Shown piece by piece: positions 42,610 to 64,000 of a stretch of DNA of 64,000 nt; position 1 is the first letter of the stretch; each line of letters starts with the position of its first letter. The stretch spans positions 2,030-66,029 of the forward strand of contig CBDUTJ010000013.1 of assembly GCA_965370415.1 (NCBI GenBank). Reading direction: 5' to 3'. Both the position numbers and the translations under genes were made by a program. The notes under the pieces are model-generated. The model was not told the origin of the DNA, searched no databases, and saw only the letters and a program-made list of their open reading frames with translations. Source of the DNA: an uncultured bacterium. GTDB lineage: Bacteria; Cloacimonadota; Cloacimonadia; Cloacimonadales; TCS61.

Positions 42610-43933
42610 TCAAAAATAACATTTTGCTATCATAGTTTCTTGTTGTCCAAAGATCACTTAATTTATTTATCTCTTTAAAGTTCATTATTATATCACGAAT
42701 ATTCAATAAGGCATTAGAGAATTGATTGAATTTCTTATTATTGCGTGCTTTAAGATTATTGAGATATTCTAACTCCGCATTATATAGATCATCAATCTCT
42801 GCAATACTAACCTTTAGGTTATGCTTAACAATATTCTTAATCTCATCATCAATTAATTTATTCTCATCTATGGTATCTTCTCTTATTTCTATTATTTTTT
42901 TTTGAAATAACTGTATGTAGTTTAGAAAGTCGTAGACATAGCCTACTGTGTCTGGATTAACGTAATCAAAGGTGTCTAAATATTTAACGAATTCCATATG
43001 GAGAAGTTCATTTTTCATACTGATATTACATTTGTTACAATTATAGTAAATCCGCGAACCTGTAAAAGAATGTCCACAATTCTCACATAAAAGCCAATTA
43101 CGTAAAGGAAGGTCTTCATTTTTTAGCATTCTTTTCTTCCTTTTCTTTCTATTAGTTTTACTCGTTATCAATTTTTGAACAGCATTATATGTGCTAATAT
43201 TTATAATCGGAGGTATATTTCCCTTTTTCCACTTACCCTTATTATCCTTCACGTATCCAGCATATTTTTTGTTCTTTAGCCTAAACCTTAACGTATTATA
43301 ATGAATCTCCCCATATCCTTCTTTATATAGCTCTGATTGGATTTCTTCGATGGAATAACCCGCCAAAGCCAAGGAAAATATCCTTTTGATTTCATTTTTA
43401 TCATCAGGATTGATACTTAAACGACCCTTACTACCATCGAATACAATTTTGTAACCTGTTGCAGGTCTTCCCCATGATTTACCATTCGATATTTTATTTT
43501 GTATAGCCTGTTCAGTAGTTTTTGAATTAATAATTATCTCTAATTCTCCTTCTACGGCTATTTTTGCAAAAGTTAAATACGATTCTTTACCACGAAGTTT
43601 GGAGTGGGTACAGTCAATAAACTCAATCTTATATTTCTTTAAAATCTTAATTAGATTAATTGCAATTTCAGCTGACCGAGCCATGCGCTTACTATCAGCA
43701 ACAATCAGATAACCAATTTCTTTTTTATTTTGATGGATGAATGCTTCCATTGCATTTAATTCACTTCTTCCTGGATTATCACCTTTAGCTACTTCAGAAA
43801 ATATCTTTAATACACTTGAATTTAATTTTTCCACTTGCGAACGACAGACCTTCTTTTGGTGAGTTAGCGTGTTGTTCTTAGAAAATTGTCTTTGTGTGCT
43901 AAGACGAGAATAGATTAAGGATTTCTTCATCAA
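42563..43933 (-). CDS. large serine recombinase
   Basis: N-terminal resolvase catalytic pattern LIYSRLSTQRQ...GYLIVADSKRMARS, a recombinase-domain region, and Cys pairs (CENCGHSF...YYNCNKCN) typical of the zinc-ribbon insert. 456 aa. Confidence 0.8.
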   Translation of the reverse strand: MMKKSLIYSRLSTQRQFSKNNTLTHQKKVCRSQVEKLNSSVLKIFSEVAKGDNPGRSELNAMEAFIHQNKKEIGYLIVADSKRMARSAEIAINLIKILKKYKIEFIDCTHSKLRGKESYLTFAKIAVEGELEIIINSKTTEQAIQNKISNGKSWGRPATGYKIVFDGSKGRLSINPDDKNEIKRIFSLALAGYSIEEIQSELYKEGYGEIHYNTLRFRLKNKKYAGYVKDNKGKWKKGNIPPIINISTYNAVQKLITSKTNRKKRKKRMLKNEDLPLRNWLLCENCGHSFTGSRIYYNCNKCNISMKNELLHMEFVKYLDTFDYVNPDTVGYVYDFLNYIQLFQKKIIEIREDTIDENKLIDDEIKNIVKHNLKVSIAEIDDLYNAELEYLNNLKARNNKKFNQFSNALLNIRDIIMNFKEINKLSDLWTTRNYDSKMLFLSDIYPGRRCCLLCLI

Positions 43934-44432
43934 CTATCTCTAATTAATATTCCATTACAGGTAACGGTAAGCTAACATGATATTATTATACGCCCTAAGG
44001 AGGGATCTAACCGTAACTCCTTATATAGCACGGTTCTGTAAAGCACGTAATCTCTTTCCATCATAATCATAAAAATGGATATTATCACCATAAAAAATCC
44101 TCTATATTTCCTCAATGGAAAACGTTATCCCCTTTAAGCCCGCGTTATAAGCAAGACTACATGCCTTATACCTAATCTGTTTTACAAGAAAGCTAATTCA
44201 TAATTCTTTAAAGAACTCTGATTCATTTTATTATATTTCAAAACCGAGATGTGAAGTCACTAATTTTATTGTCAAATGAATTTCTTCGATGGATTGTGCA
44301 TAATAATATCACTCTCTGAATTACAATAGCCCCAAATGATCTATACTTTTTTGTAAATTTAAATAAAAAAATGGAAAAGCATACAGCACAGGAAAATCGA
44401 AAGACTGGAACCGGGGTTGCGATTTGATCTCA

Positions 44433-44570
44433 ATGGGAAAATACATAAAACGGGATGAAGGATTAAGATTGAAACCTTACCGATGCCAAGCCAAGAAATT
44501 GAAAATTGGTTATGACCTGAACCTAGAAGCAAGGGGAATATCTATTAAAAAAGCTGAAGATAAAAAATAA
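44433..44570 (+). pseudogene. short fragment resembling the N-terminus of a phage-type (GH24-like) lysozyme
   Basis: Manual translation MGKYIKRDEGLRLKPYRCQAKKLKIGYDLNLEARGISIKKAEDKK* resembles the EG.RLKPY.C.AGK.TIGYG.NL...GIS..EA motif, but it is only 45 aa. Confidence 0.3.
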
Positions 44571-44603
44571 AAAAGGGGCTGTGGCTCATGTTATAATCAA
44601 GAT

Positions 44604-45167
44604 TCAATAATGTTGGTGATGATGAACAAGTATATCTTTTATTGATTTTTTTATCTTTCGAATGCAATTACTACTATCAATATTCATGGGATATATCAAT
44701 TCAATTTCTTCCCCGAATTTCACTCTTACCAGTTCCTCACTTGTTTGCTCATAGTTTCTTATCTTAAGCTGCGGTACATCATGCCTCAATTGAACAGAGC
44801 TTCTTTCTTGCACAAAAGGAAATTTTACAGAGTTTTTTACATCTTTAATTGTTTCTAAGGGAGACTTTTTAAGTAGTGTAGATTGATCTTTCTTATTTAA
44901 TTGTTTTAATGATCTTCTCCCGGCTTCTTTCTTCACCTGTACAAAATCCAAGTCTTGAATCATTTCCTTGATCCGCTTCAAGGGATAGTGTTCTTCCTGC
45001 AGTTTCTTTATCAGAATAATGCGGTAAAGATGATCATCTGAATAAAAGCTGTTGATCCCTACTCCAGAGTGTGGTGGTATCAGTCTCTTGCCTATATAGT
45101 AATGCACTGTTCTTTTCGTAACCCCAGCTTTCAATGCCAGTTCCGATATTGTGTATCCTTTTTTCAT
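44604..45167 (-). CDS. MerR-family-like HTH protein
   Basis: N-terminus YTISELALKAGVTKRTVHYYIGKRLIPP is a MerR-type HTH. Confidence 0.75.
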   Translation of the reverse strand: MKKGYTISELALKAGVTKRTVHYYIGKRLIPPHSGVGINSFYSDDHLYRIILIKKLQEEHYPLKRIKEMIQDLDFVQVKKEAGRRSLKQLNKKDQSTLLKKSPLETIKDVKNSVKFPFVQERSSVQLRHDVPQLKIRNYEQTSEELVRVKFGEEIELIYPMNIDSSNCIRKIKKSIKDILVHHHQHY

Positions 45168-45685
45168 ATCATTACCCCCAATAAATTACGATGAAAAAAT
45201 AACACCACTACGTAACGGTGTCAAGTAATTTCATAATCTCGGGGCTTCATCATGCTGTGAGCGAATATGGGGTGGCAGGAGATTTGTTATAAAATGACAA
45301 TCTGATGACAGAAAAAAACAACATCGGTTAGCTGAATCCTGCCTTTCAAAAACTGCTTAAAAGCAAAAGGATGGGAAATGAACCCACACAAAGCTAAAAC
45401 GGGCTGCATGGAACCTCATTGCAAAGAAACAGACTGTACCACCAACGCAAGAATATCTACGTTCTGTGGCGTTATTTTTTACAGGGCCAAAAGAATAAGC
45501 GTCGTTACCTCTCCCGGCACAGGGAGCTATTATCACTAGGATCAATATCCATCCTCAAAAAAGTGATCCGAATCCTACAGGTTCCCTAGTTAAAGATCAA
45601 GGAAGCTGTACCTATTGTTGCAGATAAATATTAATTTCATCAATTTAAAAAAGATACATTTAGATTATGTGTCTCGAGGATTATT

Positions 45686-46696
45686 TTATTTAGACGTTCT
45701 TCTAGCTGATCTTTTCCTTTTACTTCTATCCCTCCTTTTTTCAAGATTTTCAATTTCCTCTTCTGTAAGTATTTTCCTTGAAGGATCAGCAATCCACTTA
45801 TCTAAATCATTTTTACTAAATATTAAGGACCGACCTAATTTGGAATGTGGAATTTGCTTTTTGCTCGTTAGCTGATATAATGTATTTTTTTTTATTCTTG
45901 TATAATCAGAGCATTCATCGATACTCATATAAGGAGTGTTGGTTTCAATTGTATTCCCAATATTAAGTTCAATTTTCTTTCCGTCTGCTACTCTGTACAC
46001 TTTCCTTAAATCATCTTCAATCTGTGGAATCCTTTTTTTAATTTCTGCATAGAATTCTGTTCCTGTATATATCGGCTTTTTTATTTCTATATTTTTATCT
46101 TTTATAAAATCTTTATATTCAAGATCTGTGAGCCAGATTGGTGGTATCATAGTGTATATAGGATGAATTCTGAAACTATCAGGGTGATAGGTAAATCCTT
46201 CTAAAAAAAGAGCGCCCATGCTTAACCAGACTTCCAAGATATTATTCATCCTGAAGAGTGGCTTTTGTTTTGATAATGTCCCCTCAAGCATGAATTTTCG
46301 TATTTCCTTTAGAAAGTGTGTATCATTTTTTCTTTCTCTGGAAAAATCAATTATCAACAAATATACTTGGACCATATATGCAAGAGATTGTACTCGTGAT
46401 ATTCCCTGGATTTTTGAAATAGAGCTTATTGCTGTATGGAGTTGAGTATAAGACTGATCATCGATATTTTCATCCAGCAGCAAAATATTATATCCTAATA
46501 ATATCTTTATCCTGTTTATCAGTGATTTTTCCAGAGAGTATTTTTGTGGAAGTTTTAGTAGACTTAAGTATATTTTAATTTCAGTTTTATTTTTCCTCTG
46601 ATATATTGTAAGTTTTAGCAACTCTTTTTTTTGTTCCTCGACCCATTGAGGTATAAAAGCAGCTAATTGTTTTAGAAATGAATTTTCATTTTTCAT
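45686..46696 (-). CDS. hypothetical protein with C-terminal excisionase-type HTH (HTH_17-like)
   Basis: MSIDECSDYTRIKKNTLYQLTSKKQIPHSKLGRSLIFSKNDLDKWI near the C-terminus, followed by a basic tail. Located directly downstream of the integrase gene. Confidence 0.65.
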   Translation of the reverse strand: MKNENSFLKQLAAFIPQWVEEQKKELLKLTIYQRKNKTEIKIYLSLLKLPQKYSLEKSLINRIKILLGYNILLLDENIDDQSYTQLHTAISSISKIQGISRVQSLAYMVQVYLLIIDFSRERKNDTHFLKEIRKFMLEGTLSKQKPLFRMNNILEVWLSMGALFLEGFTYHPDSFRIHPIYTMIPPIWLTDLEYKDFIKDKNIEIKKPIYTGTEFYAEIKKRIPQIEDDLRKVYRVADGKKIELNIGNTIETNTPYMSIDECSDYTRIKKNTLYQLTSKKQIPHSKLGRSLIFSKNDLDKWIADPSRKILTEEEIENLEKRRDRSKRKRSARRTSK

Positions 46697-46718
46697 AATA
46701 TATTATCTCCTTTTTTTA

Positions 46719-47819
46719 TCATTTAAAATATTCATCTAATAAATCAATGGCTTTATCTTTTCTACTATCCACGAGATGAATATATTGCATTGTGGTTTTT
46801 ATATTTTTATGTCCCATCAGCTTCATTATTGTAAAGACACTCTCTCCTTTTGCAGCTAAAAGCGTTCCAAAAGTATGCCGCCCACTGTGAAAAGTTATTT
46901 TCTGATTAATACTTTTAGAATTAATCCACTCTCTAAACCTCTGAGATAATCTTCCTCCTGTTGGTATACTAAAAATTCGATCTTCCTTCATATTTTTCTT
47001 TTGTTCCTTTATTATTCCAAGGGCTATTGTATTGAGTTTAATCCGAACAGTTTCACGGGTTTTTTTCTGACGAAAATATAAGTGCTTCTCCTTAATATTA
47101 TTATGGGTAATTCTGTTAAGATCTGAACGTCGAAGTCCTGTAAAACAAGAAAACAAGAATCCATTTTTTATTTGGAAGTATTTGCATGGTTTCTCAATAA
47201 GTTCCTTTACTTCAGTAATTGTTAAAAATTCAATTTGGGGATCATCGTATTTTATACTAATTCCATTTGCCGGATTTCTGTCTATTAACTCAGACAATAC
47301 TGCCAGATTAATAACAGCTTTGAATGTGACAAAATAATGGTGTGCAGTATGAGCTTTAACAGGTAGTCTGAGCAGGTAATCTTTATACTTCAAGCAGATA
47401 TCTCGTGTCAGTTCACTGAAAAGAAAAGTACTCTTATTAATAAATTCTTTAAAATAATTCAAAGACACTGTATAATTATAATCTTGCTTTTGCTGAACTG
47501 TTTCTTCAAAAAATTCCATGAAATTTTTATCGTTATCTTCAGAAAAGAGCTTGATCCCGGAATTAGATTCGTATATTTCCTTTTCTTTTTTATCCCTTAT
47601 TAATTTTGCTTTATTGATCTCGTTCTCATCTTTAATTTTACTCCTGCTATCCCCTGCAACATATAATCCAAGGGATTTCCTTTGTCTTGAACTTTTGTAT
47701 GAATAATCAAGATATAAACTATATAATCCATTCTGCATCTTTCTAGCACAGATCTTAATTTGGTAACCTGTATTCATCTTACTCAATTTATCAATAATTT
47801 TCGGAATTGAATTTTTCAT
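46719..47819 (-). CDS. tyrosine recombinase / phage-type integrase
   Basis: C-terminal catalytic pattern ...GLRRSDL...FHSGRHTFGTLLAAKG..VFTIMKLMGHKNIKTTMQYIH (R, H-x-x-R, H, Y), plus an N-terminal SAM-like domain. Confidence 0.9.
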   Translation of the reverse strand: MKNSIPKIIDKLSKMNTGYQIKICARKMQNGLYSLYLDYSYKSSRQRKSLGLYVAGDSRSKIKDENEINKAKLIRDKKEKEIYESNSGIKLFSEDNDKNFMEFFEETVQQKQDYNYTVSLNYFKEFINKSTFLFSELTRDICLKYKDYLLRLPVKAHTAHHYFVTFKAVINLAVLSELIDRNPANGISIKYDDPQIEFLTITEVKELIEKPCKYFQIKNGFLFSCFTGLRRSDLNRITHNNIKEKHLYFRQKKTRETVRIKLNTIALGIIKEQKKNMKEDRIFSIPTGGRLSQRFREWINSKSINQKITFHSGRHTFGTLLAAKGESVFTIMKLMGHKNIKTTMQYIHLVDSRKDKAIDLLDEYFK

Positions 47820-47847
47820 TTCATCCCCTCATTAATTATCTGGTCAA

Positions 47848-47897
47848 GTGACAGATATGTGACAGATTTTGTCAAGAATTAACAAATATTAACAAAT
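47848..47897. repeat. short direct repeats upstream of the integrase (GTGACAGAT x2; TTAACAAAT x2)
   Basis: aaGTGACAGATatGTGACAGATtttgtcaagaaTTAACAAATaTTAACAAATtt. Candidate arm-type or regulatory sites. Confidence 0.5.
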
Positions 47898-47960
47898 TTC
47901 CAAAAACCAGATGCTAAAAATAATGGAATAATGGCATAAATGTAACTCATTGATATTAAA

Positions 47961-47984
47961 GAAAAAAGCCGCCAAATGCGGCTA
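47961..47984 (-). terminator. rho-independent terminator downstream of tRNA-Ala
   Basis: Minus-sense AGCCGC-ATTTG-GCGGCT followed by TTTTTT. Confidence 0.6.
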
Positions 47985-47992
47985 TGAAAAAA

Positions 47993-48068
47993 TGGTGGAG
48001 CATAGCGGGATCGAACCGCTGACCTCATGACTGCCAGTCATGCGCTCTCCCAGCTGAGCTAATGCCCC
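47993..48068 (-). tRNA. tRNA-Ala (anticodon GGC), CCA encoded
   Basis: The reverse complement GGGGCATTAGCTCAGCTGGGAGAGCGCATGACTGGCAGTCATGAGGTCAGCGGTTCGATCCCGCTATGCTCCACCA folds as a cloverleaf. The anticodon loop is CTGGCAG, the G3:U70 alanine identity pair is present, and the T-loop is GGTTCGATCC. Confidence 0.9.
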
Positions 48069-52145: not shown

Positions 52146-54326
52146 TTATAATTCTATACCTTCACCAATTCTGCTTTCTTTCTCCAAAGCTCCATCGAGA
52201 TAAACCTGGAATCTATTATTTTCAATTTCTACATTAAATATATGTCCTTTAATTGGAACATTATCAATTTTCAAATATTTCAATCCAAGAGGAAGCGGAT
52301 CAACGATTAATGTACCATCGAGTTGCGGTTGAATTCCGCAGATATATTTTATGATCAGATCAACTATCCAGGAATGTTGGTAGTCGTTCACACCACGATA
52401 AAGACAGGGTTTTCCCGAATGCGGATTATAATGCTCGAAAGTATTTGGATATTTCAGATCACCACCTGAGAACATCATTTCAATGGTTCTTTTGATGAAC
52501 CATCCCGCTTTTTCTTTCAGGCTTTCATCGTATTTGGAAGCAACATTTACCAATGCTTCGGCGATATGGGAATTGGTCATTGGCCATACTCTTCCATTCC
52601 AGGGACAGTTCATTCTCTTTTCTTTCCATTCGCCAAAAGGACTTGAAAGAGGTTCGTTCAAAGCGGTTGACGGAACAGGGTATGAAGTCCAGAATTCATC
52701 TTTGTTAAAAAGATGTTTCTTTAGTCCGTTCAGGTGAGATTCATCTGCAATTTCGTAGATATACGGATAAAAGCAGACTGCAGCTTTGATGTTCGTTCTT
52801 TTCCAGTTTTCCGGATTCACATCAAAAAACATCTCCTCATCTTTTTCCCACATATATTTCAGAACAGCTTTTTTGATCTTTGCGGTTTCTTCTTTCCATT
52901 TTTTTGATTCAGATTCTTTCCTTAATTTCTTGGCAATAAAAGAGAGTGCTTTACGAATTCCATATTGGTAACAGGTAGCATCCACTCCTTTCAACCTGAT
53001 ACCGCTGGATTCCATTTGCAGGTCTGCCTTTTCATCCACACTGGTGTAACGCGTCATGAATTCCTGTCCGGTTTCCATCTGGTCTATCACATCATATAAA
53101 TAGCTATGTTCTGTATCACGTTCTTTATCAAAAAATTCTGTATATTTCACGAGGGATGGATAAACTTTTTTCAGGAAATCAATATCAGGATGAATCTTGT
53201 AAGTCTCCATTACCGCAGTTCCAAAATCCGTATGATAGAAGCTTTTTCTATTAATGTCAATTGGATACAGGTTCCCGGGATAACTACCGTTCCGGTCTTG
53301 ATTATCAGCGAAGTTAAGGAAACTGCCTTCTGCAACTTTAGGGCTGTTCATCCAGCGTGTTTCCAACATATGGCATTGAGCAGAATAGGAGATCGGCATT
53401 CTGAAATAAGCTGGCCCTTCACAAACACAGGGATAGGAATATGAATCTTTCATCATAAAAAGCCGCAGTCCAAACCAGCGATACCAATAGTATTTTTCCA
53501 AATATTTATTAGAGCATTCAAAATATGGTACGGAATTAAAAAACTCCTGCCAATTATTTTTGCTTTCTTTTACAGGATTCTTGATATTGAATGTTTCCTC
53601 GAATTTTTTCTTAACTTGATCGGAAGTTTTCGCAACCGAAAGGGAGATCTTTACTTCAGCATTCTTTGTAATTTTTAAATGTTTATGCAAGCCAAAATAG
53701 AGTAATCCATCCGGGTTTATCCCCTTATTATGGATTTCATTTGGAAGCTTTCCACTAAACTTCTCGTAGAATGGAGTGTATTCAAATTTTGGTTGATTTT
53801 CCGTATATTCAGAAAGATTGATTGAAAATGATGAATGTTCCATTCCAATAAATACTGAAAAATTGAAAGGATATTTTTTCTTTAGTTTTACTTCACGTTT
53901 AAGAAGGATTCCATTCTCTTTTTTAGAAAAGGATAGAGTTCTTTCTTTCTGATCATTTGCTTGTGCTGTCCATAAGATCACATCGATTTCCTGATTTTTC
54001 CCTTCAAAATGTAGAGCTGTAGAAAGTGTATCATTGGGAAGCAAAACATCTGTTTCGATGAATGTAAGATCGTTTATTAAGGAAAATCTTCTTATCAGTT
54101 TGGAAGGATCCCACCTTGTATCAATCAATTTTGGTTTGAGTTCTTTTCCATCTTTTGAAAGGAAAGAAATCGTATAAAGTGGTTTTATGGGAATATTATA
54201 AAAATGTGCTTCATCCCACAATCCAGGAACGTGCAGCCACTGCGGAAAAAGCGGTGTGAAAATAAGTGAGTCTCCTCCGCCAAGATACCATTTATCGTCT
54301 CGTTCGAGTAATTTGAGAATGTTCAT
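52146..54326 (-). CDS. (alpha/alpha)6-barrel glycoside hydrolase, GH63/MGH1-like
   Basis: 726 aa. The C-terminal catalytic-domain patterns NCPWNGRVWPMTNSHIAEAL and FEHYNPHSGKP are typical of GH63/GH37/GH15-clan enzymes. No signal peptide is evident. Confidence 0.65.
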   Translation of the reverse strand: MNILKLLERDDKWYLGGGDSLIFTPLFPQWLHVPGLWDEAHFYNIPIKPLYTISFLSKDGKELKPKLIDTRWDPSKLIRRFSLINDLTFIETDVLLPNDTLSTALHFEGKNQEIDVILWTAQANDQKERTLSFSKKENGILLKREVKLKKKYPFNFSVFIGMEHSSFSINLSEYTENQPKFEYTPFYEKFSGKLPNEIHNKGINPDGLLYFGLHKHLKITKNAEVKISLSVAKTSDQVKKKFEETFNIKNPVKESKNNWQEFFNSVPYFECSNKYLEKYYWYRWFGLRLFMMKDSYSYPCVCEGPAYFRMPISYSAQCHMLETRWMNSPKVAEGSFLNFADNQDRNGSYPGNLYPIDINRKSFYHTDFGTAVMETYKIHPDIDFLKKVYPSLVKYTEFFDKERDTEHSYLYDVIDQMETGQEFMTRYTSVDEKADLQMESSGIRLKGVDATCYQYGIRKALSFIAKKLRKESESKKWKEETAKIKKAVLKYMWEKDEEMFFDVNPENWKRTNIKAAVCFYPYIYEIADESHLNGLKKHLFNKDEFWTSYPVPSTALNEPLSSPFGEWKEKRMNCPWNGRVWPMTNSHIAEALVNVASKYDESLKEKAGWFIKRTIEMMFSGGDLKYPNTFEHYNPHSGKPCLYRGVNDYQHSWIVDLIIKYICGIQPQLDGTLIVDPLPLGLKYLKIDNVPIKGHIFNVEIENNRFQVYLDGALEKESRIGEGIEL

Positions 54327-55495
54327 TATATTCCTTTTGCTGGTTCAATATACGCTCCTCTCGAAGGAACGACTTCATAAAACTGCGGGATAAATCCTGT
54401 CTTTTGAAAATACACATCCAGAATTATTTCTTTTAGCTGTTCAATTTTGGAATTCTTCACCAGATAGATCACACATCCGCCAAAACCTGCTCCGGTAAGT
54501 CTTGCACCTAAAACTCCAGATTCATTCTTTCCAATTTCTACAAGCAGATCAAGTTCTTCTGTACTGACTTCAAAAAGTTCTTTTAAACTTTGATGAGACT
54601 GATACATCAACTCACCAAAAGATTTTGCATTTCCTTTTTCCAGGACTTCTACAGCTTGTTTTACTCGTTCATTCTCATAAACAATATGCTCAACTTTTCT
54701 CTTTAATGTATCAGGCAAGAATGAAGCATATCTTTCAAGATCATTTATAGAAAGATTACGCAGAGATGTAATTTCAGGAAGATATTTTTGAAGAATTTTC
54801 ACTGCATCTCTGCATTCTTGTCTTCTTTGATTATAGGAAGATTCTGCTAGTTTTCTTTTTACCATTGAATTACACACAAGAAATGAATAATCCTGAATTA
54901 ATAACTGAATATATTTATATTTCAAACTTCTGCAGTCAATGAAAAGTGCATTGTCTTCTCTGGAAAGCAGTGATGCAAATTGATCCATTATTCCGCATTG
55001 CACACCAACGAAATCGTTTTCTGCTTTTCGGGCTAATTCTACCATTTCTATTGGTTTGATCTCCAAATCATATAATTCTTTAAAAGAAAGTAACGTTGCA
55101 ATTTCTATCGAAGCGGAAGAGGAGAGTCCTGCACATTCGGGAACTTCACTAAAAATTAGAACATCTATTCCTCCAATTTTGTATCCGGCATCGAGAAGAA
55201 CTTTTACTATCCCACGCTGATAATTGCTCCATCTCTTTTGTTGAGTTGGTTTGATATTTTTAAGATCGAATTCTTCCTTTTCTTTATATTTCAGATCATA
55301 GATTCGAATTTTCCCATCATCGTTTTTAGAAACAAGCATATTTGTGTATCTATCAATTGCAATTGGAAGCACAAAGCCGTCGTTGTAGTCTGTATGTTCA
55401 CCGATAAGGTTAACTCTACCCGGTGCTCGGATGATATTGGTAGGAGATTTTTTATAGATTGTTTTATACTGCTTAATAAGATTTTCTTTGGTCAT
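54326..55495 (-). CDS. galK: galactokinase
   Basis: Galactokinase signature GRVNLIGEHTDYNDGFVLP, GHMP motif PECAGLSSSAS, and C-terminal GARLTGAGFGGC. Confidence 0.9.
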   Translation of the reverse strand: MTKENLIKQYKTIYKKSPTNIIRAPGRVNLIGEHTDYNDGFVLPIAIDRYTNMLVSKNDDGKIRIYDLKYKEKEEFDLKNIKPTQQKRWSNYQRGIVKVLLDAGYKIGGIDVLIFSEVPECAGLSSSASIEIATLLSFKELYDLEIKPIEMVELARKAENDFVGVQCGIMDQFASLLSREDNALFIDCRSLKYKYIQLLIQDYSFLVCNSMVKRKLAESSYNQRRQECRDAVKILQKYLPEITSLRNLSINDLERYASFLPDTLKRKVEHIVYENERVKQAVEVLEKGNAKSFGELMYQSHQSLKELFEVSTEELDLLVEIGKNESGVLGARLTGAGFGGCVIYLVKNSKIEQLKEIILDVYFQKTGFIPQFYEVVPSRGAYIEPAKGI

Positions 55496-55883
55496 ATTTC
55501 ACAATCCAATGCAAATAATCTTTTGGATCAATAATCTCATATTCTATTGGTTTAACCGGTTTGTATGAAACCCATTGAAAATTATCGATCTGCTCAAAAG
55601 AACTTACCGGAACTTTATACAAATATCCCACTTTGGAAGAATCGAGTTTTCCTGTTTTAATAATGATCTTTGGATTTCCATCTTCAAATGATAATTCCCA
55701 GACACGACTATTACTTTCATCAGCCATAATAGACAGAGCAAAAGAAATTGCAAAATTTCTATCCTGGGAAGCGTAGATCGCACAAAGAGAATCTTTTGCC
55801 GAACCAATTCCGGTTGCCTGGTTGGGCTTGAGAATTTCTTCCAGAAATCTGCTGCCATGATATAAGAATTTAATTTCTTCCAT
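55473..55883 (-). CDS. hypothetical 136-aa protein (possible minimal ADP-ribosyltransferase-like fold, speculative)
   Basis: ORF in an operon between the GH gene and galK, overlapping galK by 23 nt. The N-terminus is FLYHGSRFLEEIL...AIYASQDRNFAISFA. Confidence 0.5.
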   Translation of the reverse strand: MEEIKFLYHGSRFLEEILKPNQATGIGSAKDSLCAIYASQDRNFAISFALSIMADESNSRVWELSFEDGNPKIIIKTGKLDSSKVGYLYKVPVSSFEQIDNFQWVSYKPVKPIEYEIIDPKDYLHWIVKYDQRKSY

Positions 55884-55887
55884 TTAC

Positions 55888-58491
55888 TTATTTTTCCACC
55901 CATCTTTCAAGTTTCTTATCATTATGAACAAACTTTCCGTCAACATAAACCGAATAACCTGCAGGATACTTCCCATATCGTTTCGGTTTATCCGGTGACT
56001 GCCAGACAATTGTAATATTTTTCCCATGATAATTAACATTTTCTAATAGGAAATAATCAAGTCCCATTGGCAGCGGATCGAGCTTTATGTGCCCATCTTC
56101 CTGCGGTTCAAAACCAACAATATGCCTAACGAAAATATCAATCCACCAGGAATGCATATAATCCCGGAAATAACTCAGCGGCTCTCCTGTGAGCGGATTA
56201 TATCGTTCAAAAAAATCTGCTCGCGGTTGAAGATGTTTATTGGCAACAAGTTTGATAAGTTCGGTTGCATCGGGAAGCAGAGAACGATCTAGAGTTTTGG
56301 CTGAAGTTGCGAAAGCTTCCAAAATATGCGAAGTAGCAGCAGGCCAGGACGGTCCTTCCCAGAAACCATTCGGATCAAAGTTCGGATCATCTTTGGGAAG
56401 TGCGGGTACGGGATATGGAAGTTTGAACTGATCAGGGTTTAAAAGATGCTTCCTGAATACATCGAGATTTGCTGAAATTCCGATGCCTGCAAAGAATGGA
56501 TAGAAAGTGGTGATGCACATTGTTTTGGAAAGCTCTTTTGAATCCGGATGCCTGTCTCGATAGCTTTTATCTTCTGCATACCAGAGCAACGAATTTACAG
56601 CATTCTTTGTTTTTTCTGTATAATCTTGAAAGTATTTTTTATCTTCATTTTTTCCCAGAATGCGCGCTATTTTAGAAACTGCCAGCATATTTGCAAAAGC
56701 ATAACTGGTAGCATCGATCGCATCATACCGCAAGGTCGGATCGTTGTCATCAAAGCGGGAAAGGTCATCCATTCCTGTTTCAAGCTGATGATCGATAACA
56801 AACAAACCATCTCCATCAGCATCACGATCTTTGATCCACCACTCAACATTCTTCTTTATTCCCGGATAAATCTCTGCAAGCATCTCTTTATTTCCGTGAA
56901 TAAGATAATGCTGCCAGGCAGTGTACGGAAGAAGTGAGAGTCCGCTTTTAGACTTATGATGCAGATTCACACGATTTGTACGGGGAGAAGTGTACCACGG
57001 AAAGCGTCCGTCTTCATAAGCAGAATGGAGCATATTAGCAATGTGTCCAAATCCAAGCTGAGCATCAGTTGCCCAGTTCATATCTAAAGCCATAAAGGGT
57101 GCACTATAACAGCAGTAAGTTTGATAAGCCTGTCTTCCTTCCATCACGACAGGATATTTGAAGAAACCAAGATTACCGCCGGCTGTAGAGAATTTAAGCA
57201 GAAACCAGCGAAATCCATAAAGCTCTTCCAAACCTTTATCCGAACAGGAAAAATGAGGAACATCATTCTGGAAAAAGTTCTGCCAGTTCGTTCTGTTCAG
57301 AGCAATCGGATCATCTTGTTCTAAAACGGTTTTCAGATTTTTTAATGCAACCTGTTCATCAGGATCAATAGCACAGGCAAAAGTGAATTTTTGGGAAGTA
57401 TATGGAGGAATTTCAACTTTGTATTTCAAGAGATAAGTTCCTGCCGGTTCGCAGATCATCTCATCCGGCTCGAGGGTTCCACCAATTGCCATTGTAAGTC
57501 CATCATCGAGGATGTTTGGAAAAACATTCTTATCTTTCAGGATGATGAAATTGTCTACTTTTTTTGTGATCTTCTCGCCTCCAATCTCTTCACGCCAATC
57601 TTTTGATCTGGTGCAGTCTCCGGCAATTTCAATTATTTTTAGAATTGGATTTGCAGTCGGATTGAAAATATGAACCACGGAAACCACTACATCATTTTTG
57701 GTTACACAAACCTGCCGTTGTTCTGTAAGTCTGATCTTTGACTTTTGTTTTTTAAATTGTTCTTTTCTATCTTTGGAAATAATTATCTGATCAATATTCA
57801 GATTTAAGATTGAGCCCAAATTAACATCCGGAGTTACAAGAACATGATCCGCAAACCAGTTGATAGTTGTTCCATCAACGATATCGAAAATATTTCCAAG
57901 CTTGTGAGTGGCATAATAAAATTTAGAAGGAATGCTTGTATAAAAAGCTACATTCTTGCCGTGACCTACACAATTCTTATCATTTCGGTTTCCGATAAGA
58001 TCAAGGACAGGAGACTTTGGAATTGGGATTTGCGGAAAAGTAATATTTGTTCCAAGATTTATAACGGTCAGTCGTAAAAAATGTTTTCCAGCTTCAATTT
58101 TTTGAATATAAAGCGATGACCACTTATAATCCTGCTCTTTATTTCCCCAACCGCCGGTGTTTGAATATTTCAATCTTCCTGCAAATTTACCATCAAGAGC
58201 AACATCCAACCAGCATTTTCCATTTAACGCTCGTGCATATCGGATTGAAATCCAAAAATTGGTGAGTGTTTCCTCCAATTCAAATTCATATTCTGCATAA
58301 TGTCCGGCTTGCGAACCGAATTCACAGCCCAGAACTTCTCCTCCGGAAGCAGCAACTTTTTCGTCTATTCCCTGCGAACCTTTTTGAAAGATGGGATTTT
58401 CAGCTTCGAGGGTGATAATTGCAGGTTCGAAGGATGAAAGAGTTTTGAATACAAAAATACAAAATATAATAAATACTGTTTTATACTTCAT
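55888..58491 (-). CDS. secreted glycoside hydrolase: N-terminal carbohydrate-binding-like module + GH63/MGH1-like (alpha/alpha)6 domain
   Basis: Signal peptide. The N-terminal ~150 aa are lectin/CBM-like (ITLEAENP...GEV..CEF...Y.EYEF...YARA..G...LDV.LDG). The catalytic region has FWEGPSWPAATSHILEAF and FERYNPLTGEP and is paralogous to the 52146 gene. Confidence 0.7.
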   Translation of the reverse strand: MKYKTVFIIFCIFVFKTLSSFEPAIITLEAENPIFQKGSQGIDEKVAASGGEVLGCEFGSQAGHYAEYEFELEETLTNFWISIRYARALNGKCWLDVALDGKFAGRLKYSNTGGWGNKEQDYKWSSLYIQKIEAGKHFLRLTVINLGTNITFPQIPIPKSPVLDLIGNRNDKNCVGHGKNVAFYTSIPSKFYYATHKLGNIFDIVDGTTINWFADHVLVTPDVNLGSILNLNIDQIIISKDRKEQFKKQKSKIRLTEQRQVCVTKNDVVVSVVHIFNPTANPILKIIEIAGDCTRSKDWREEIGGEKITKKVDNFIILKDKNVFPNILDDGLTMAIGGTLEPDEMICEPAGTYLLKYKVEIPPYTSQKFTFACAIDPDEQVALKNLKTVLEQDDPIALNRTNWQNFFQNDVPHFSCSDKGLEELYGFRWFLLKFSTAGGNLGFFKYPVVMEGRQAYQTYCCYSAPFMALDMNWATDAQLGFGHIANMLHSAYEDGRFPWYTSPRTNRVNLHHKSKSGLSLLPYTAWQHYLIHGNKEMLAEIYPGIKKNVEWWIKDRDADGDGLFVIDHQLETGMDDLSRFDDNDPTLRYDAIDATSYAFANMLAVSKIARILGKNEDKKYFQDYTEKTKNAVNSLLWYAEDKSYRDRHPDSKELSKTMCITTFYPFFAGIGISANLDVFRKHLLNPDQFKLPYPVPALPKDDPNFDPNGFWEGPSWPAATSHILEAFATSAKTLDRSLLPDATELIKLVANKHLQPRADFFERYNPLTGEPLSYFRDYMHSWWIDIFVRHIVGFEPQEDGHIKLDPLPMGLDYFLLENVNYHGKNITIVWQSPDKPKRYGKYPAGYSVYVDGKFVHNDKKLERWVEK

Positions 58492-58507: not shown

Positions 58508-58630
58508 CCACCGATTGAAATCGGTGGTTATTTTGTTATTTTTCTCGTTGCGAAGTGCAACTTCGCAACGCTTGATTTTCAGCAAGTTGAACTTGCATAC
58601 TAATTACGTTCACAAGTGCAACTTGTGAAC
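58508..58630 (+). repeat. cluster of four palindromic hairpins (AAGT-GCA-ACTT family), copy A
   Basis: CCACCGATT-GAA-AATCGGTGG; CGTTGCGAAGT-GCA-ACTTCGCAACG; GCAAGTT-G-AACTTGC; GTTCACAAGT-GCA-ACTTGTGAAC. The last ~65 nt recur at 60988-61052. Confidence 0.6.
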
Positions 58631-58675
58631 AAGAAAAGTAATCTGAGAGAATCTATGAAATAAAACTTTTCAATG

Positions 58676-60964
58676 TCATTTCAAAAGCAACATTCTCTTT
58701 GTTTCAGAAAAAATGTTTCCTGATTTTAATTTGTAGAAATAAATCCCGCTGGAAACAGGCTGATCATTTTCATCGGTTCCGTTCCAAGTAACTGACCCTT
58801 TCTTGAGCGAAGACTCGGGACTCAGGATGACATCAAATGTTTTTATCTTCTGCCCTTTGATATTATAGATAATTAACTCCGTGTTCTCTGTGAACTCTGT
58901 GGTTAAAGAAAAAGAAATAGTTGTGGATGGATTGAATGGATTGGGGTAATTGCCAATAAGTCTATTATGAACAATAGGAAAATCCTCTTCTGCAGAAACA
59001 AAGTCAACTACCATTGTAATAGGAATTACAATCTCTGATTCATCGGGATCATTACTAATAATAACGGCTTCTGCCTGATAAGTTCCATTAAGTATATCAG
59101 TTGCATCAAAAGAGAAAGTGATCTCATCAAAAGAACTTGCTGGAATCGTACCTGCACAACTGCTGATCTCCAACCAGGTTGGACCTGAATAAAAAAGAAC
59201 AGCCAGCTCATTTTCAACATACAGAGCATCATAAACTACTTGAAGAGCATCACTTGCATTCTCATTCTGAATTCCAATAGTTGCAGTATCAAGGTCTCCA
59301 CTGACCTGGCGATATTGGAATAAAATATGACCATTTGCGTAAAGAATCATCTGAAAATCATAAGTTCCCGTATATATCCCAGGATAATGAATAACATTAT
59401 CAAACAAGACGATCAAACTATCGGGAGTACTATAATAATATACATCTCCGCCTTGAAGAGGATCAAGGTCATCCCAGTAACCAAAAATAGCAGGACGAGG
59501 AGCATTCAATCGAGGAAGTTCATAATTATGGTAATCTGTCCAATCTTCTCCAAAACCGATCCAGCCATTTGGATTGATACGGAATTCAGAATATTTCGAA
59601 CCATAGAAATTGAAGTCAAAACCGATCGGCATTAATTCTGTTCCCACATCATTATGCGTAAAAGTTACAAGTGTCCCCAACATGGAAATATCACGCCAGT
59701 TGTAATCAGGTCCTTCCGGTTCATTGCTGTCTATCCATAGATAACCATAATCATCCGGACCACCTGATCCCTCTGATGGGAATGATAAATCGACAAGATT
59801 GATCACGTAGAAAAGGTCACTATCTCCAACATTGCTGAGCGTTAATGTTTCTTCACCCATAGAACCCGGTTCAAGTTCTACAATGAAAAAATCAGTAGAT
59901 AATTCAATATCAGGAGGAGAAATACATTCACCATTCAGGTCTATCAACAATGGATTCAGTTCCGGGTCATTGCTCTGGATAGATAATATAGCACTGAATG
60001 TCCCGATATTTTCGGATGTAAATGTTATTTCAAGTTCGGTTTGTTCTCCCCAACCCAGATCAAATGCAGTTGTTCCTGTGTAAGTAAATCCATCTCCAAT
60101 GATTTCTACAGAAGAAACATTTAAGTCAACATAACCTAAATTCCTAATATTCAAGGTCATGTTCTGGGGATAATTTAGATATTGAATTCCGAAATCCAGT
60201 TCATCTGTAGAAGCCCAGATATGCGGATCAGGATCATTGGATAGGAATGAAAAGTAGCGGGCCATCAAATCTGCTTTTGTGTTTGTTCCATCAGCATCTG
60301 CCATAGCTCCAAAAATTGAAGAAGTGCAGATAACGCGGTATGAACCTTCATCGTAATACACCGAACGTCCAATATCATTCTGGCAGGTGAAATAAAGAGT
60401 TCCTTCATCTGCAGTGAGGACATCTACCATATAATCCGGATCTTCATCATATTGAAAGGCAAAATCATCTCCGGACGTGAAAGTATTTCCCGCACCTATT
60501 ATGTTATGAATTCCATTTGTAGTTCCATTGCTGATGTAATTTGTGCCCAGATAACCGAAAAATGTAGTTGTATGATGATTGTAACCTACATCTGCTCCTT
60601 CGATGTAAAGAGACCCTCCACCGTTTAAATAATTAATTAAAGTTTGTTGTTGAGAGGTGCCAACGACACCGGGTGGTGTGGTTCCTCAACCCACGCAATA
60701 GATGCCCAGAGTCACGAAAACAACATCGTAGCTGGAAAGATCCCCGGGCAGTGTGGATACTGTAGTGAAAGTTATTCCATTTGCTGTTAATGCCTGTTGT
60801 ATTTTAAATTCACAGCCCACGTAAGCGGTTCCTTCCGGATCCTGGAAACCATTGTTGTTGTCGTTGTCCCAGATTAGAACCTGCTGAGAAAAAACTAAAC
60901 AAGGCAATAAAAATAAAAGTAAAATTACAAAATTAATTGTTGAATGTTTTTTTTCAAATTTCAT
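58676..60964 (-). CDS. secreted protein with T9SS sorting domain, interrupted by one in-frame TGA (60686-60688): recoded gene or pseudogene
   Basis: Track ORFs 60686-60964 (signal peptide, ends ...VVFVTLGIYCVG*) and 58676-60430 are in the same frame (60964-60430=534=3x178). The interval 60431-60685 translates without stops (GTTPPGVVGTSQQQTLINYLNGGGSLYIEGADVGYNHH...). C-terminus [16 protein letters not shown]...GIYFYKLKSGNIFSETKRMLLLK. Confidence 0.7.
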
Positions 60965-60987: not shown

Positions 60988-61052
60988 AACGCTTGCTTTT
61001 CAGCAAGTTGAACTTGCCCACTAATTGCGTTCACAAGTGGGAGTTTGTGAGC
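60988..61052 (+). repeat. palindromic hairpin element, copy B
   Basis: AACGCTTGCTTTTCAGCAAGTTGAACTTGCCCACTAATTGCGTTCACAAGTGGGAGTTTGTGAGC aligns with 58568-58632. The last hairpin keeps pairing only through G-U wobbles in plus sense. Confidence 0.55.
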
Positions 61053-61109
61053 GTGAGTAACCTTGAAAGTGTTAATATGAAAGAATCTTTGAAATAATCC
61101 TTTTCAAGG

Positions 61110-64000
61110 TTACTTCATCAAAAGCATTTTCCTCACTGATGTAAAATCACCTGCTTTCATTTTGTAAAAATATACTCCGCTTGCAACTGGCGTATTGTTC
61201 TCATCTTTTCCATCCCAAATAACAGTATGATAGCCTACATCCAACTTATCATCAATGAGCATTCTTACTTTTTGTCCCTTGATATTGTAGATTTCCAGTG
61301 TAACTTTTGAATTTTCATTAAGGCTGTAACTTATAGTTGTGCTTGGATTAAATGGATTCGGATAGTTATTCTTCAACTCCACTTTATAGATGGATTGAAT
61401 AATATTTTCATCTGAACTGACAGAACCGGAATATGCCTGAGCTGGATTACTGAAGGAACTTTCACCTTCCGTATAAATTGCAGTTACAACATAATAATAA
61501 ATTCCGGATGAAAGTCCTGTGTCGAGATAGAAAATTTCATTCGTGTTTGTTAGCAATTCATAAGGACTGTTCGGATTATTCCTTCTATAAATGTTGTAAC
61601 TTTCAGGTTGAGTAGAAGGTTGTTCCCAGCTCAATTCGATTTCATTAACATTGATGTTTTCTGCATAAAGATTTGCTGGTGGTTCGAGGAACACATTGGG
61701 TTCTACAATGGCAATATCATCGATATACCAGCCTTCTTCTGCTGTAGCTCCATCCGAACCGAAAATAAAACGGAACTTAACTGTTCCATCATAATCCTCA
61801 AGATTAAAGAATGCTCTTTCCCAGTCAATTGAACCTGAGAACACTTGTGTATCACCAGCAAATGGAGGATTATTATCTCCCCTTGTCAGAAATGGATAAC
61901 CACCTTCCGGGAATATTTGTGACCATTGACTGTTATGGAAAATCTCAATCAGACCGCCATCATAACAATAGCCCGGATAAGAATTACTTATTTCTGCAGA
62001 CATCCAATGGTAAAATGTCAGATAGGTATCGCCTGTTAACTCTATATCAGGTGTTTCAAGGGCACACAACAGGTTATTATTGCAAGGACCTGTTCCCGTA
62101 CTTCCCATCTTCCAGGAATGCACATCTGAATAACATCTGAGTGTTGATTGATGCCATTGGTCCTGCCCACCGTTCAAGGCAGAATGTGTCCAGCCATTGA
62201 CGCCATATTCCACATTGTCATAAAATCCTACACTCACATCAAGTTGGAGGATATTATAATATCCTAATTGCTCATTTAACAAAAGGTTTAATCTCAAATT
62301 ATGAATAGCGGGACAATCTGCTGAAACAGTGAAGGTAAACATATCATCAAAACCGGAAATCTCACCGGTTGCCAGATATGAGATTTGGGAGCTGTTATTA
62401 TTGATAGTGATATAAATATCATCGGAATAAAGCTGACCTGTGATATTTTCAGCTAAACCTTCCCCATTATTAATAAGGTTGATCTGCAATGAACCTGATT
62501 CTCCGGGCTCAAGGCATCCATTACCATTCCCGTCTTCAATCACAAAATTAGCAATTTCCAGGATCGGTGCATAAGATGTGATGGAGAAATCGTATTCCCA
62601 GGTATCAGTGCTCGAATTTATCACAAGATGAAATACTAATTGTTCATTATCCGGACAGAAAGGTTCTATCTGAATCTGAAAGGAAGTAAGCCCGTATTCA
62701 ATAGAATCAGGAAGGATATTATTATAATTGGAAAAATCATTTATAATCGTAACATACTGGTTTGTTGAAGAAATGGTTGCATCAATATCTGTAGCTTCTT
62801 CAGAACCTACATTTCTTAATCCTACCAGAAATGATATTTGCTCACCGTGTTCTACAATGCTGTTCCCGTTTCCTGCTGAATCATCTATAATATAATCGTT
62901 AAATAAAACATAAGAACCTCCTGGCGGAATTACAGTAATATCTTCATACACCGTCTCGGAATTGAAAGCTGTTACAACCATTTTTGCATCACCTGCAATC
63001 AAAGCATGAGAAATTGTCACGCTACCAAATTCATCTGTCACACCGGAAAAATAATTTCCATCCTGAGATAAACAAACCAAAGCACCTTCTACTGGAACTC
63101 CACTTGACGTTATAGTAGTTATAAAATCAATACCCATTAATACCACTTCATTTGATAGAACTAAATCTGATGGTGGTGCAGTTCTAACCTGGAGAGCAAC
63201 ATCACCGAATACAGTCCATGCTTCCATCTCTGACTGTCCTCCGGAATATTCTTCGACAGTCATCAGGATAGAGCCATTGAAACATAATGCACCATAAGTT
63301 GTTTTTTGAACATCCGTACTGATACCGTTCTGCCCGGGATGTAAACTGTAATCGTAACCTCCAATAAGAAGGTCGTTGAAGTAATCCTGTCCTCTCATCG
63401 GAGGATTCCAGGATTGACTAATTGTAGAAGCGTACATACCTACAGCGCCACCATTTTCTTTATGAAGCCAGGCTTCTGCAAAACATTCTGTTGAATGAAA
63501 AGCTCCATTAACACAAGCAACCGAAACGATGAATGGAAGCATATCCCCGTTTGTTAGATTGGCTATATGACTGTTACTGAAACCTGACGAACCCCAGGAA
63601 GTAGTTGAGCCATGTCCAGTGTAATTGATTATACCTGTTCCCGTATTTAGAGCATTGGCAACCATTGTTGGATTTGCTGCAGGGTCATAAATGGGGTAGT
63701 ATGTGTCATAAGTAAAAGGATCCAGTTTATCATTCCAGATTACATCAAGATGTTCATAATCCAGTTCTCCATCATCTCCGGGACCTTGATTGGATGCAAT
63801 TCCTGTAGCTGTTTCATACCAGTTTCCACCTATTTCAGGGTCTCTTTCATAAGCAATTGTTTTATTAACCTGTGTTGTTACATGAGTAGTATTATTTGCA
63901 CAGAACCTTCCAACAATAAGATCAGGATAAGCATCCGCTCCAACAACACAACCAAGATTCGGGTCAGCAGGAGCACTACCTGTTGTTGGACCCTGAAGGT
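61110..64000 (-). CDS. peptidase C25 (gingipain-like cysteine peptidase) with FN3-like module and T9SS sorting domain; 5' end beyond the window
   Basis: INYTGHGSTTSW (catalytic His region) and FIVSVACVNGAF (catalytic Cys region). The frame stays open upstream of the track Met to position 64000 (...PDLIVGRFCANNTTHVTTQVNKTIAYERDPE...). C-terminus [16 protein letters not shown]...GVYFYKMKAGDFTSVRKMLLMK. Confidence 0.85.
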   Translation of the reverse strand, partial: LQGPTTGSAPADPNLGCVVGADAYPDLIVGRFCANNTTHVTTQVNKTIAYERDPEIGGNWYETATGIASNQGPGDDGELDYEHLDVIWNDKLDPFTYDTYYPIYDPAANPTMVANALNTGTGIINYTGHGSTTSWGSSGFSNSHIANLTNGDMLPFIVSVACVNGAFHSTECFAEAWLHKENGGAVGMYASTISQSWNPPMRGQDYFNDLLIGGYDYSLHPGQNGISTDVQKTTYGALCFNGSILMTVEEYSGGQSEMEAWTVFGDVALQVRTAPPSDLVLSNEVVLMGIDFITTITSSGVPVEGALVCLSQDGNYFSGVTDEFGSVTISHALIAGDAKMVVTAFNSETVYEDITVIPPGGSYVLFNDYIIDDSAGNGNSIVEHGEQISFLVGLRNVGSEEATDIDATISSTNQYVTIINDFSNYNNILPDSIEYGLTSFQIQIEPFCPDNEQLVFHLVINSSTDTWEYDFSITSYAPILEIANFVIEDGNGNGCLEPGESGSLQINLINNGEGLAENITGQLYSDDIYITINNNSSQISYLATGEISGFDDMFTFTVSADCPAIHNLRLNLLLNEQLGYYNILQLDVSVGFYDNVEYGVNGWTHSALNGGQDQWHQSTLRCYSDVHSWKMGSTGTGPCNNNLLCALETPDIELTGDTYLTFYHWMSAEISNSYPGYCYDGGLIEIFHNSQWSQIFPEGGYPFLTRGDNNPPFAGDTQVFSGSIDWERAFFNLEDYDGTVKFRFIFGSDGATAEEGWYIDDIAIVEPNVFLEPPANLYAENINVNEIELSWEQPSTQPESYNIYRRNNPNSPYELLTNTNEIFYLDTGLSSGIYYYVVTAIYTEGESSFSNPAQAYSGSVSSDENIIQSIYKVELKNNYPNPFNPSTTISYSLNENSKVTLEIYNIKGQKVRMLIDDKLDVGYHTVIWDGKDENNTPVASGVYFYKMKAGDFTSVRKMLLMK

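Follow-up and report, generated by a model that had tools for sequence, protein, structure and literature searches.

The stretch of DNA considered here (the window) comprises 64,000 nucleotides of contig CBDUTJ010000013.1 from an uncultured member of the Cloacimonadota (assembly GCA_965370415.1), and it carries on its minus strand a 762-codon gene that contains a single internal TGA codon. This TGA is very probably a codon for selenocysteine (Sec, U), and the gene is therefore considered a real predicted selenoprotein gene rather than a pseudogene. The evidence comes from related loci, in which the same alignment column holds either TGA or a Cys codon, from purifying selection that continues past the TGA, and from a compact RNA hairpin that recurs at a nearly fixed distance downstream of it.

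A 92-codon open reading frame (ORF) at 60964..60689 stops at the TGA (60688..60686), and a 584-codon ORF at 60430..58676 shares its frame. The 255 nucleotides between them (60685..60431) are free of stop codons, such that reading through the TGA yields a product of 762 residues. The context of the codon is DVVFVTLGIY-C-V-G-TGA-GTTPPGVVGT, with neither Lys nor Arg close to it. There is no other lesion in the 762 codons, and the gene is intact, being neither mutated nor misassembled. The ORF layout and the frame check thus agree with the initial annotation of this DNA, which had described one TGA that splits an otherwise intact gene. There is only one site in the 64 kb where a lone TGA joins two open stretches that are also homologous coding sequence, and single in-frame TGAs that join long ORFs, sought in the window and in all related loci, were found only in members of this same family. 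TGA is a regular stop codon as well, ending 10 of the 32 long ORFs of the window. Therefore the genetic code is standard and genome-wide reassignment of UGA is excluded, as the initial annotation had also concluded.

Related loci were fetched from metagenomes and genomes by using peptide patterns from parts of the domain that exclude the TGA column. There are 25 inspected loci that lack Cys at this column, corresponding to 22 distinct sequences including the window, and all 25 carry TGA at exactly this position despite identities that range from 31 to 90%. The codon is never TAA or TAG. Among the loci fetched by pattern, TGA was confirmed at the column in all 20, which are 31-49% identical to the window. 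A word-indexed protein search gave only three matches, and each is a piece of the gene: one (P0003, 52% identical over the match) terminates precisely at LGIYCVG, another (P0002, 45% identical) starts slightly downstream of the Sec column, and the third (P0001, 90% identical) is a downstream piece as well. In the contigs that encode these three proteins, TGA is present at the same column and is followed by homologous coding sequence. The local sequence reads CVG-TGA-GTTPPGSVGT in contig L001, CGG-TGA-GWTPPDPVGS in L005 and CVG-TGA-GTTPPGVVGT in L006, which carries a 90%-identical orthologue. One protein record (P0011) shows Trp at the column, but this results from a gene call made with genetic code 4, and the DNA there reads TGA.

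The ratio of nonsynonymous to synonymous substitution rates (dN/dS), calculated against the L006 orthologue, is 0.146 before the TGA, 0.123 just after it and 0.142 further on. The segment with the value of 0.123 comprises the 85 codons from the TGA to the next ATG, and these would go untranslated if the TGA terminated synthesis. Invariant alignment columns are likewise present on both sides of the TGA. Separately, the L006 contig includes a disrupted stretch at about 2270-2370 (VVYCSVC-stop-K-stop-AGCSFLFRSNL) with two stop codons in the middle of the gene, and the window is clean at this place. An assembly join or local duplication within the metagenome contig probably accounts for the disruption.

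When 1.84 billion representative proteins were searched exhaustively with HMMER, using X at the Sec column and a threshold of E<=1e-3, 632 matches were returned. We examined 153 sequences, namely the best 150 of these 632 and the three from the word-indexed search, and none of the 153 has an annotated U. In this set, 87 are fragments that begin 0-35 residues past the Sec column, 11 end at the column or within a few residues of it, and 52 span it. Gene callers routinely split members of this selenoprotein family in two, and both halves of the window gene (92 and 584 amino acids) occur in NCBI and ENA assemblies.

There are six full-length close relatives that carry a CxxC motif with Cys on the Sec column (P0004, CIGC; P0006, CTGC; P0007, CLSC; P0019, CLRC; P0026, CVGC; P0032, CFSC). 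Another protein (P0016), from the subgroup in which Cys adjoins Sec, also has Cys at this column, and the codons used by Cys homologues there are TGC or TGT. P0004 corresponds to MCD4829333.1 from a metagenome-assembled genome (MAG) of the Cloacimonadota, and other relatives come from 'Candidatus Tenebribacter davisii' and from further Cloacimonadota MAGs, with JAVCCH01, JAOZPK01 and GCA_021108395.1 among the assemblies that carry them. The family is large and has its centre in this phylum. The Sec forms exhibit three types of motif: C-[VLGS]-G-U, Y-[RT]-C-U, wherein Cys directly adjoins Sec, and Y-R-T-U, which lacks Cys and is found in L017. This last locus carries tandem short-form paralogues with TGA codons at 724-726 and 1862-1864, one reading R-T-U and the other R-C-U, so the family can do without the partner Cys. 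Across the family, it is Sec that stays invariant while the partner Cys shifts or disappears, and Sec forms greatly outnumber Cys forms. A Sec codon in a CxxU motif had been the leading idea of the initial annotation, which nevertheless rated the support as weak. With TGA in all 25 Cys-less loci and Cys homologues that align at the same column, the support is far stronger than that rating implied.

A candidate bacterial selenocysteine insertion sequence (bSECIS) also supports Sec incorporation. The criteria quoted in PMC13188914 for such elements are a loop of 3-9 nucleotides, a stem of 4-16 base pairs, a distance of 16-37 nucleotides between UGA and loop, a G within the first two loop positions, and a minimum free energy (MFE) of -7.5 kcal/mol or lower. 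The window hairpin GGUGUC-GUU-GGCACC passes all of these, with six base pairs, a GUU loop located 21 nucleotides from the UGA and an energy of -7.6 kcal/mol. All criteria are likewise passed by 14 of the 22 distinct Sec sequences, and 21 of 22 pass all but the energy threshold. In 21 of the 22, the hairpin is located 20-23 nucleotides from the UGA and has G in the first two loop positions. The loops observed in the family are GUC, GUU, GGUC, AGUU, AGUUG, GGC, GGCA and CGGGU, and the conserved part is short, consisting of an upper stem of 4-7 base pairs and a loop of 3-5 nucleotides.

Covariation supports this stem. The 5' and 3' arms are GGUGUC and GGCACC in the window, GGUUCC and GGAACC in L001, GGCUCC and GGAGCC in L018, GGAAC and GUUCC in L007, GGAGU and ACUCC in L027, UCGCGCA and UGUGCGA in L019, and UCGCUCC and GGAGCGA in L021. 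Some of these covarying changes also alter the encoded amino acids. When 13 distinct hairpins are aligned in register, 93.4% of cells are paired, compared with 70.6% after shuffling and 31-48% after sliding, while double-sided changes are seen in five of seven pairs and the covariation score is 0.634 versus 0.211. RNAalifold, applied to ungapped alignments anchored on the TGA, independently selects the same helix in both subfamilies. In addition, when the 15 downstream codons are recoded synonymously, the natural hairpin is more stable than its recoded versions in 20 of 21 Sec forms (p<0.05 in 12).

The initial annotation had pointed to a different hairpin that begins only two or three nucleotides after the TGA, and had remarked that it lacks the features of known SECIS elements. 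That hairpin exists (AACCACACC / ACCC / GGUGUCGUU, -7.5 kcal/mol) and indeed fails the bSECIS model, with a G-less loop only 11 nucleotides from the UGA. Nor is it conserved, given that 43% of cells are paired in a TGA-anchored alignment of 19 distinct sequences, which equals the slid controls. The conserved SECIS candidate is instead the next hairpin downstream, and the two structures are mutually exclusive because both use the GGUGUC arm. A lower stem in the window fold, in which the UGA pairs with UCAAC about 30 nucleotides downstream, was also considered, and it is not recovered across the family by RNAalifold. There is no match to a SECIS or any other Rfam family at the gathering threshold in the window, and a search around the TGA at E<=10 gave only chance matches to small nucleolar RNAs.

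The predicted protein has the architecture of an exported, surface-anchored polypeptide (Table 1). By inspection, its N-terminus has a Lys-rich start, a hydrophobic core of 16 residues and small residues at positions -3 and -1 of the VFS/QQ junction. The N-termini of relatives are equivalent, and all Sec forms examined start with a hydrophobic stretch that resembles a signal peptide. At the other end, both profiles for the sorting domain of the type IX secretion system (T9SS) score above their cutoffs. The initial annotation had likewise named a signal peptide and a T9SS domain. Every Sec form examined ends in such a sorting domain or, in L007, in a dockerin. In this relative (2507-3484), a type I dockerin replaces the T9SS sorting domain. 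The selenoprotein domain is thus predicted from its sequence contexts to be paired with at least two extracellular anchoring systems. The weak Nidogen-like match in the central region recurs in the Cys homologue P0004.

The domain that contains the TGA has no match over residues 27-245 in Pfam, NCBIfam or a PDB sequence search, and no glutamine amidotransferase (GATase) model of Pfam or NCBIfam matches the gene product. An AlphaFold2 model of this domain, built from a 29-sequence alignment, nevertheless reaches a predicted local distance difference test (pLDDT) score of 91.1 and a predicted template modelling (pTM) score of 0.90, and a single compact domain, predicted with high confidence, spans the TGA. 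Foldseek matched the model to PDB entries 2gk3, 6t7g, 5fms, 8hx8 and 3tts (E values of 1.7e-7 to 6e-6, probability 1.00), with template modelling (TM) scores of about 0.5-0.59, the best matches having about 0.55, and sequence identities of 11-14%. In the model, the CxxU loop is located between the strand VVFVT (residues 81-85) and a helix (residues 103-114), at the C-terminal edge of the parallel sheet, which is where active sites in such folds are usually found. Sec93 appears from the model to lie in the loop that follows the third strand and not in the canonical nucleophile elbow (GxCxG), where class I GATase enzymes have the Cys of their Cys-His-Glu triad. The residues conserved across the family are Y94, E96, G97 and D155 (domain numbering), and not a Cys/His pair. 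The initial annotation had characterized CxxU after a β-strand as a classic redox motif. A strand followed by CxxU is confirmed, although the fold is not thioredoxin-like.

Table 1. Coordinates of the predicted selenoprotein gene, its parts and the genes of a putative mobile element in the window, numbered from the first letter of the window.
Feature	Position	Strand	Basis or remark
Full gene	58676..60964	minus	762 codons including one Sec codon; TGA terminator 58676-58678; one internal TGA
Sec codon TGA, residue 93	60686..60688	minus	same column in relatives without Cys there
Cys90 codon TGC, C of C-V-G-U	60695..60697	minus	read from sequence
Candidate bSECIS upper hairpin	60656..60670	minus	GGUGUC 60670-60665, loop GUU 60664-60662, GGCACC 60661-60656
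Signal peptide, residues 1-26 MKFEKKHSTINFVILLLFLLPCLVFS	60887..60964	minus	by inspection; probable cleavage before QQ
N-terminal domain, residues 27-245	60230..60886	minus	class I glutamine-amidotransferase-like (flavodoxin-like) fold, AlphaFold2 and Foldseek
Choice-of-anchor D / HYDIN-VesB-like Ig domain, residues 246-335	59960..60229	minus	NF012200 63.1 bits (cutoff 45), PF22544 50.7 (25.5)
Weak Nidogen-like (NIDO) match, residues 461-516	59417..59584	minus	PF06119 22.6 bits, below cutoff 25
T9SS type A sorting domain, residues 673-756	58697..58948	minus	PF18962 28.8 bits (cutoff 27), TIGR04183 29.2 (23)
Tyrosine integrase	46719-47819		mobile element
HTH_17	45686-46696		mobile element
MerR regulator	44604-45167		mobile element
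Serine recombinase	42563-43933		mobile element

Several observations weigh against parts of this interpretation. The register of the 13-hairpin covariation alignment was chosen by eye. For the window alone, the hairpin has no significant advantage over its synonymous recodings (z -0.8, p 0.21), given that sequences coding for the peptide PGVVGT tend to form a hairpin anyway, and the single-sequence MFE fold favours the competing hairpin closer to the TGA. The hairpin of one Sec form (L025) is poor. Among the Cys forms, the hairpin is absent or weak in three of four and is kept in L028, such that the expectation of finding it missing from all Cys homologues was borne out only in part. The window and the fetched flanks, the DNA that was searched for them, contain none of selA, selB, selC and selD. 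The chemistry of the Sec residue is at present an inference only, and there are distant relatives with a loop that is free of both Cys and Sec. The latter include single-domain proteins of about 260 residues and giant multidomain proteins (with the sequence GIYSNNH), so the redox-type motif would have arisen within one clade, on a scaffold that is older.

The hairpin of L028 (2277-2330; P0004, the TGC form) has the arms GGUGC and GCACC at the SECIS position and an energy of -11.1 kcal/mol. A recent switch from Sec to Cys may have left it behind as a fossil SECIS, or it may simply follow from conservation of the PGAVGT peptide. With regard to the insertion machinery, no Sec machinery gene was recognized among 30 more long ORFs of the window that were annotated with Pfam, and ARAGORN, used to look for tRNA-Sec, reported no window tRNA other than tRNA-Ala, while 20 loci gave either tRNA-Glu alone or no tRNA. 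A passage of PMC5330540, citing Mukai et al. 2016, describes a 'Cloacimonetes type' of tRNA-Sec. A thioredoxin gene that adjoins the L006 orthologue was considered as a second selenoprotein, and it encodes an ordinary CGPC protein.

One window sequence by itself cannot separate a Sec codon from a nonsense mutation or a miscalled base that has broken a T9SS cargo gene, and damaged copies do occur in metagenome assemblies, as the separate two-stop stretch of L006 demonstrates. However, the identical TGA column recurs in the 25 Cys-less loci, which derive from independent samples and assemblers and extend down to about 31% identity, and their identities of 31-90% exclude a single contaminating source. 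The codon is always TGA, the dN/dS values past it are 0.12-0.14, and the 762 codons hold no further lesions. A pseudogene or an assembly error, which the initial annotation had listed among its alternatives, is excluded because the TGA column is conserved and dN/dS is low downstream, and we assign it next to no probability.

Perhaps the UGA is read without Sec, by a near-cognate tRNA for Trp or Cys or by a suppressor, with the hairpin merely slowing termination. A hairpin that follows a stop codon can stimulate readthrough, and a gene caller using code 4 did produce a full-length protein with Trp at this position (P0011). We disfavour this explanation and give it only a small probability, given that full-length relatives of the CxxC/CxxU subgroup replace the codon by TGC or TGT for Cys and never by a Trp codon, and that the hairpin combines a G-first loop with the spacing of 20-23 nucleotides that is specific to SECIS elements of the SelB type. 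Moreover, a tRNA-Sec is reported for the phylum in the passage of PMC5330540 noted above, and TGA terminates 10 of the 32 long ORFs. The probability is smaller still, if only by a little, that the locus makes two products, namely a secreted peptide of 92 residues and a downstream protein that is initiated independently. Gene callers do annotate ORFs of 92 and 584 amino acids that both occur in public collections, and a truncated form would be made in any case when selenium is scarce. Nevertheless, there is no conserved start codon, the called starts scatter over 0-35 residues past the column, and the stretch ahead of the first ATG is under purifying selection. The TGA also lies in the middle of a single compact domain in which strand 81-85 precedes it and helix 103-114 follows, a separate downstream product would have a T9SS sorting domain without a signal peptide, and the Cys homologues are single polypeptides. 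Thus, decoding of the TGA as Sec is strongly preferred over each of these alternatives.

If so, the UGA at 60688-60686 would be decoded by Sec-tRNA(Sec) delivered by SelB, which would be recruited by the mRNA hairpin GGUGUC-GUU-GGCACC whose loop lies 21 nucleotides past the UGA. The product would be one pre-protein of 762 residues and about 80 kDa that is exported through the Sec translocon by means of its signal peptide and is then carried to the cell surface by the T9SS via its C-terminal sorting domain. Both SelB-dependent insertion in the source organism and a surface location of the protein are predicted on these grounds. Sec93 and Cys90 of the C-V-G-U motif would be positioned in the loop at the C-terminal edge of the sheet in the amidotransferase-like domain. 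Sec is invariant while its partner Cys moves or is lost, and therefore Sec is likely to be the reactive centre, perhaps as a selenol/selenenylsulfide redox site or as a nucleophile that acts on extracellular substrates. Our broader proposal is more tentative, and we view it as possible rather than probable: that these genes constitute an uncatalogued, Sec-dominated family of Cloacimonadota-type anaerobes whose members are surface or extracellular enzymes exported by the T9SS, with Sec serving as the catalytic residue on a GATase-like scaffold. Action on extracellular protein substrates alongside the neighbouring C25 peptidases is speculative, because the association with C25 peptidases is the only functional hint that was found.

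The candidate SECIS resembles the consensus bSECIS (as modelled by bSECISearch, e.g. in E. coli fdhF) in being a hairpin within the coding sequence directly 3' of the Sec UGA, with a small apical loop that starts with G followed by U or G, a stem of at least 4 base pairs and a loop located 16-37 nucleotides away. It differs in that the family hairpin is very short, neither a lower stem nor a bulged U was found to be conserved, and there is no Rfam match. Among the catalogued selenoproteins, the nearest are two entries that are not homologous to the window protein. The predicted GATase-type selenoprotein with a GxUxG motif (NF004836; PMC13188914, Table 1) shares the class I glutamine-amidotransferase-type fold. 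However, there is no sequence match to it, the motif here is C-x-G-U-G, C-U or T-U, and the NF004836 protein is cytoplasmic whereas the window protein is predicted to be secreted. The TonB-dependent receptor selenoprotein listed in the same table is alike in its predicted envelope location and CxxU motif, but it is an outer-membrane β-barrel rather than a T9SS cargo protein, with no homology and no NCBIfam match.

The best structural matches are GATase-like non-catalytic domains, such as those of STM3548 (2gk3), the accessory domains of GH42 and GH164 enzymes and the N-terminal 'GIFT' domain of IFT52, and the GATase domain of aminodeoxychorismate (ADC) synthase is also matched by Foldseek (E about 1e-7). 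None of the non-catalytic matches is a selenoprotein or carries a CxxU or CxxC loop. Thioredoxin-fold selenoproteins (Trx, Grx, DsbA-like and SelW-like) similarly have a Cys/Sec pair after a β-strand that can be replaced by CxxC. In contrast, the topology of the domain described here is flavodoxin-like, and some parts of the family have a shifted partner Cys or do without it. There are no thioredoxin-fold proteins among the top 50 Foldseek matches reported.

A 2026 review lists 119 prokaryotic selenoprotein families or subfamilies (PMC13188914, Table 1), and there is no entry among them that matches the window family. Likewise, no selenoprotein model of NCBIfam release 20 (June 2026) gives a match, and a search for literature linking selenoproteins with the T9SS or with Cloacimonadota found nothing relevant. 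The family therefore appears to be uncatalogued, while its mechanism appears to be the ordinary bacterial one that involves UGA, a 3'-adjacent SECIS and SelB. We do not claim that this is the first extracellular selenoprotein, because Table 1 of PMC13188914 includes outer-membrane and secreted precedents.

The gene immediately upstream of the selenoprotein gene (61110-64000, minus strand) encodes a Peptidase_C25 protein of the gingipain type that has its own T9SS sorting domain and runs off the window. In a distant relative of the selenoprotein (P0070), a C25 peptidase is fused to a version of the N-terminal domain that is free of Cys and Sec. Homologous sequences of about 125 nucleotides directly follow the stop codons of the selenoprotein and C25 genes (58567-58675 and 60988-61109, minus strand). 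These share a nearly identical core of 52 nucleotides, CACTTGTGAACG.AATTAGT..GCAAGTTCAACTTGCTGAAAA.CAAGCGTT, which includes the perfect inverted repeat GCAAGT-TCA-ACTTGC. The window contains only two copies of this post-stop repeat, and the 31 loci contain none. The repeat could serve both genes as a terminator or operator, or it may be what remains of a cassette-like duplication that copied 3' ends among T9SS cargo genes.

Directly downstream of the selenoprotein gene, the region 52146-58491 (minus strand) encodes two glycoside hydrolases of the MGH1-like/trehalase type (55888-58491 and 52146-54326), and a galactokinase gene (54326-55495) sits between them. T9SS cargo genes are unusually frequent in the window, where about a dozen long ORFs at 692-35947 have a Por_Secre_tail or FlgD_ig/CHU_C-type match, which would be indirect evidence of T9SS machinery in the genome. 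These ORFs combine β-helix/PMP repeats, Reg_prop, LVIVD, FG-GAP, Kelch, cohesin, CarboxypepD_reg and an arylsulfotransferase-like region. A probable integrated mobile element (42563-48068) adjoins tRNA-Ala(GGC) at 47993-48068, and its genes are listed in Table 1.

If the TGA indeed encodes Sec, then many database fragments are halves of one selenoprotein and inflate the counts of hypothetical proteins. Annotation pipelines could rescue such split genes by combining a profile with a rule for the TGA column, and metaproteomic searches of digester samples could directly probe the prediction. The hairpin would represent a compact, covarying variant of the SECIS from a phylum that is reported to have an atypical tRNA-Sec. 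The finding would add one family to the approximately 119 that are known from prokaryotes, and this family would be unusual in its association with the T9SS (or, in one relative, with a dockerin), its non-thioredoxin fold, the predominance of Sec over Cys forms, and an invariant Sec that is accompanied by a variable Cys. It would also reveal a hidden requirement for selenium in the Cloacimonadota, a phylum abundant in sediments and anaerobic digesters.

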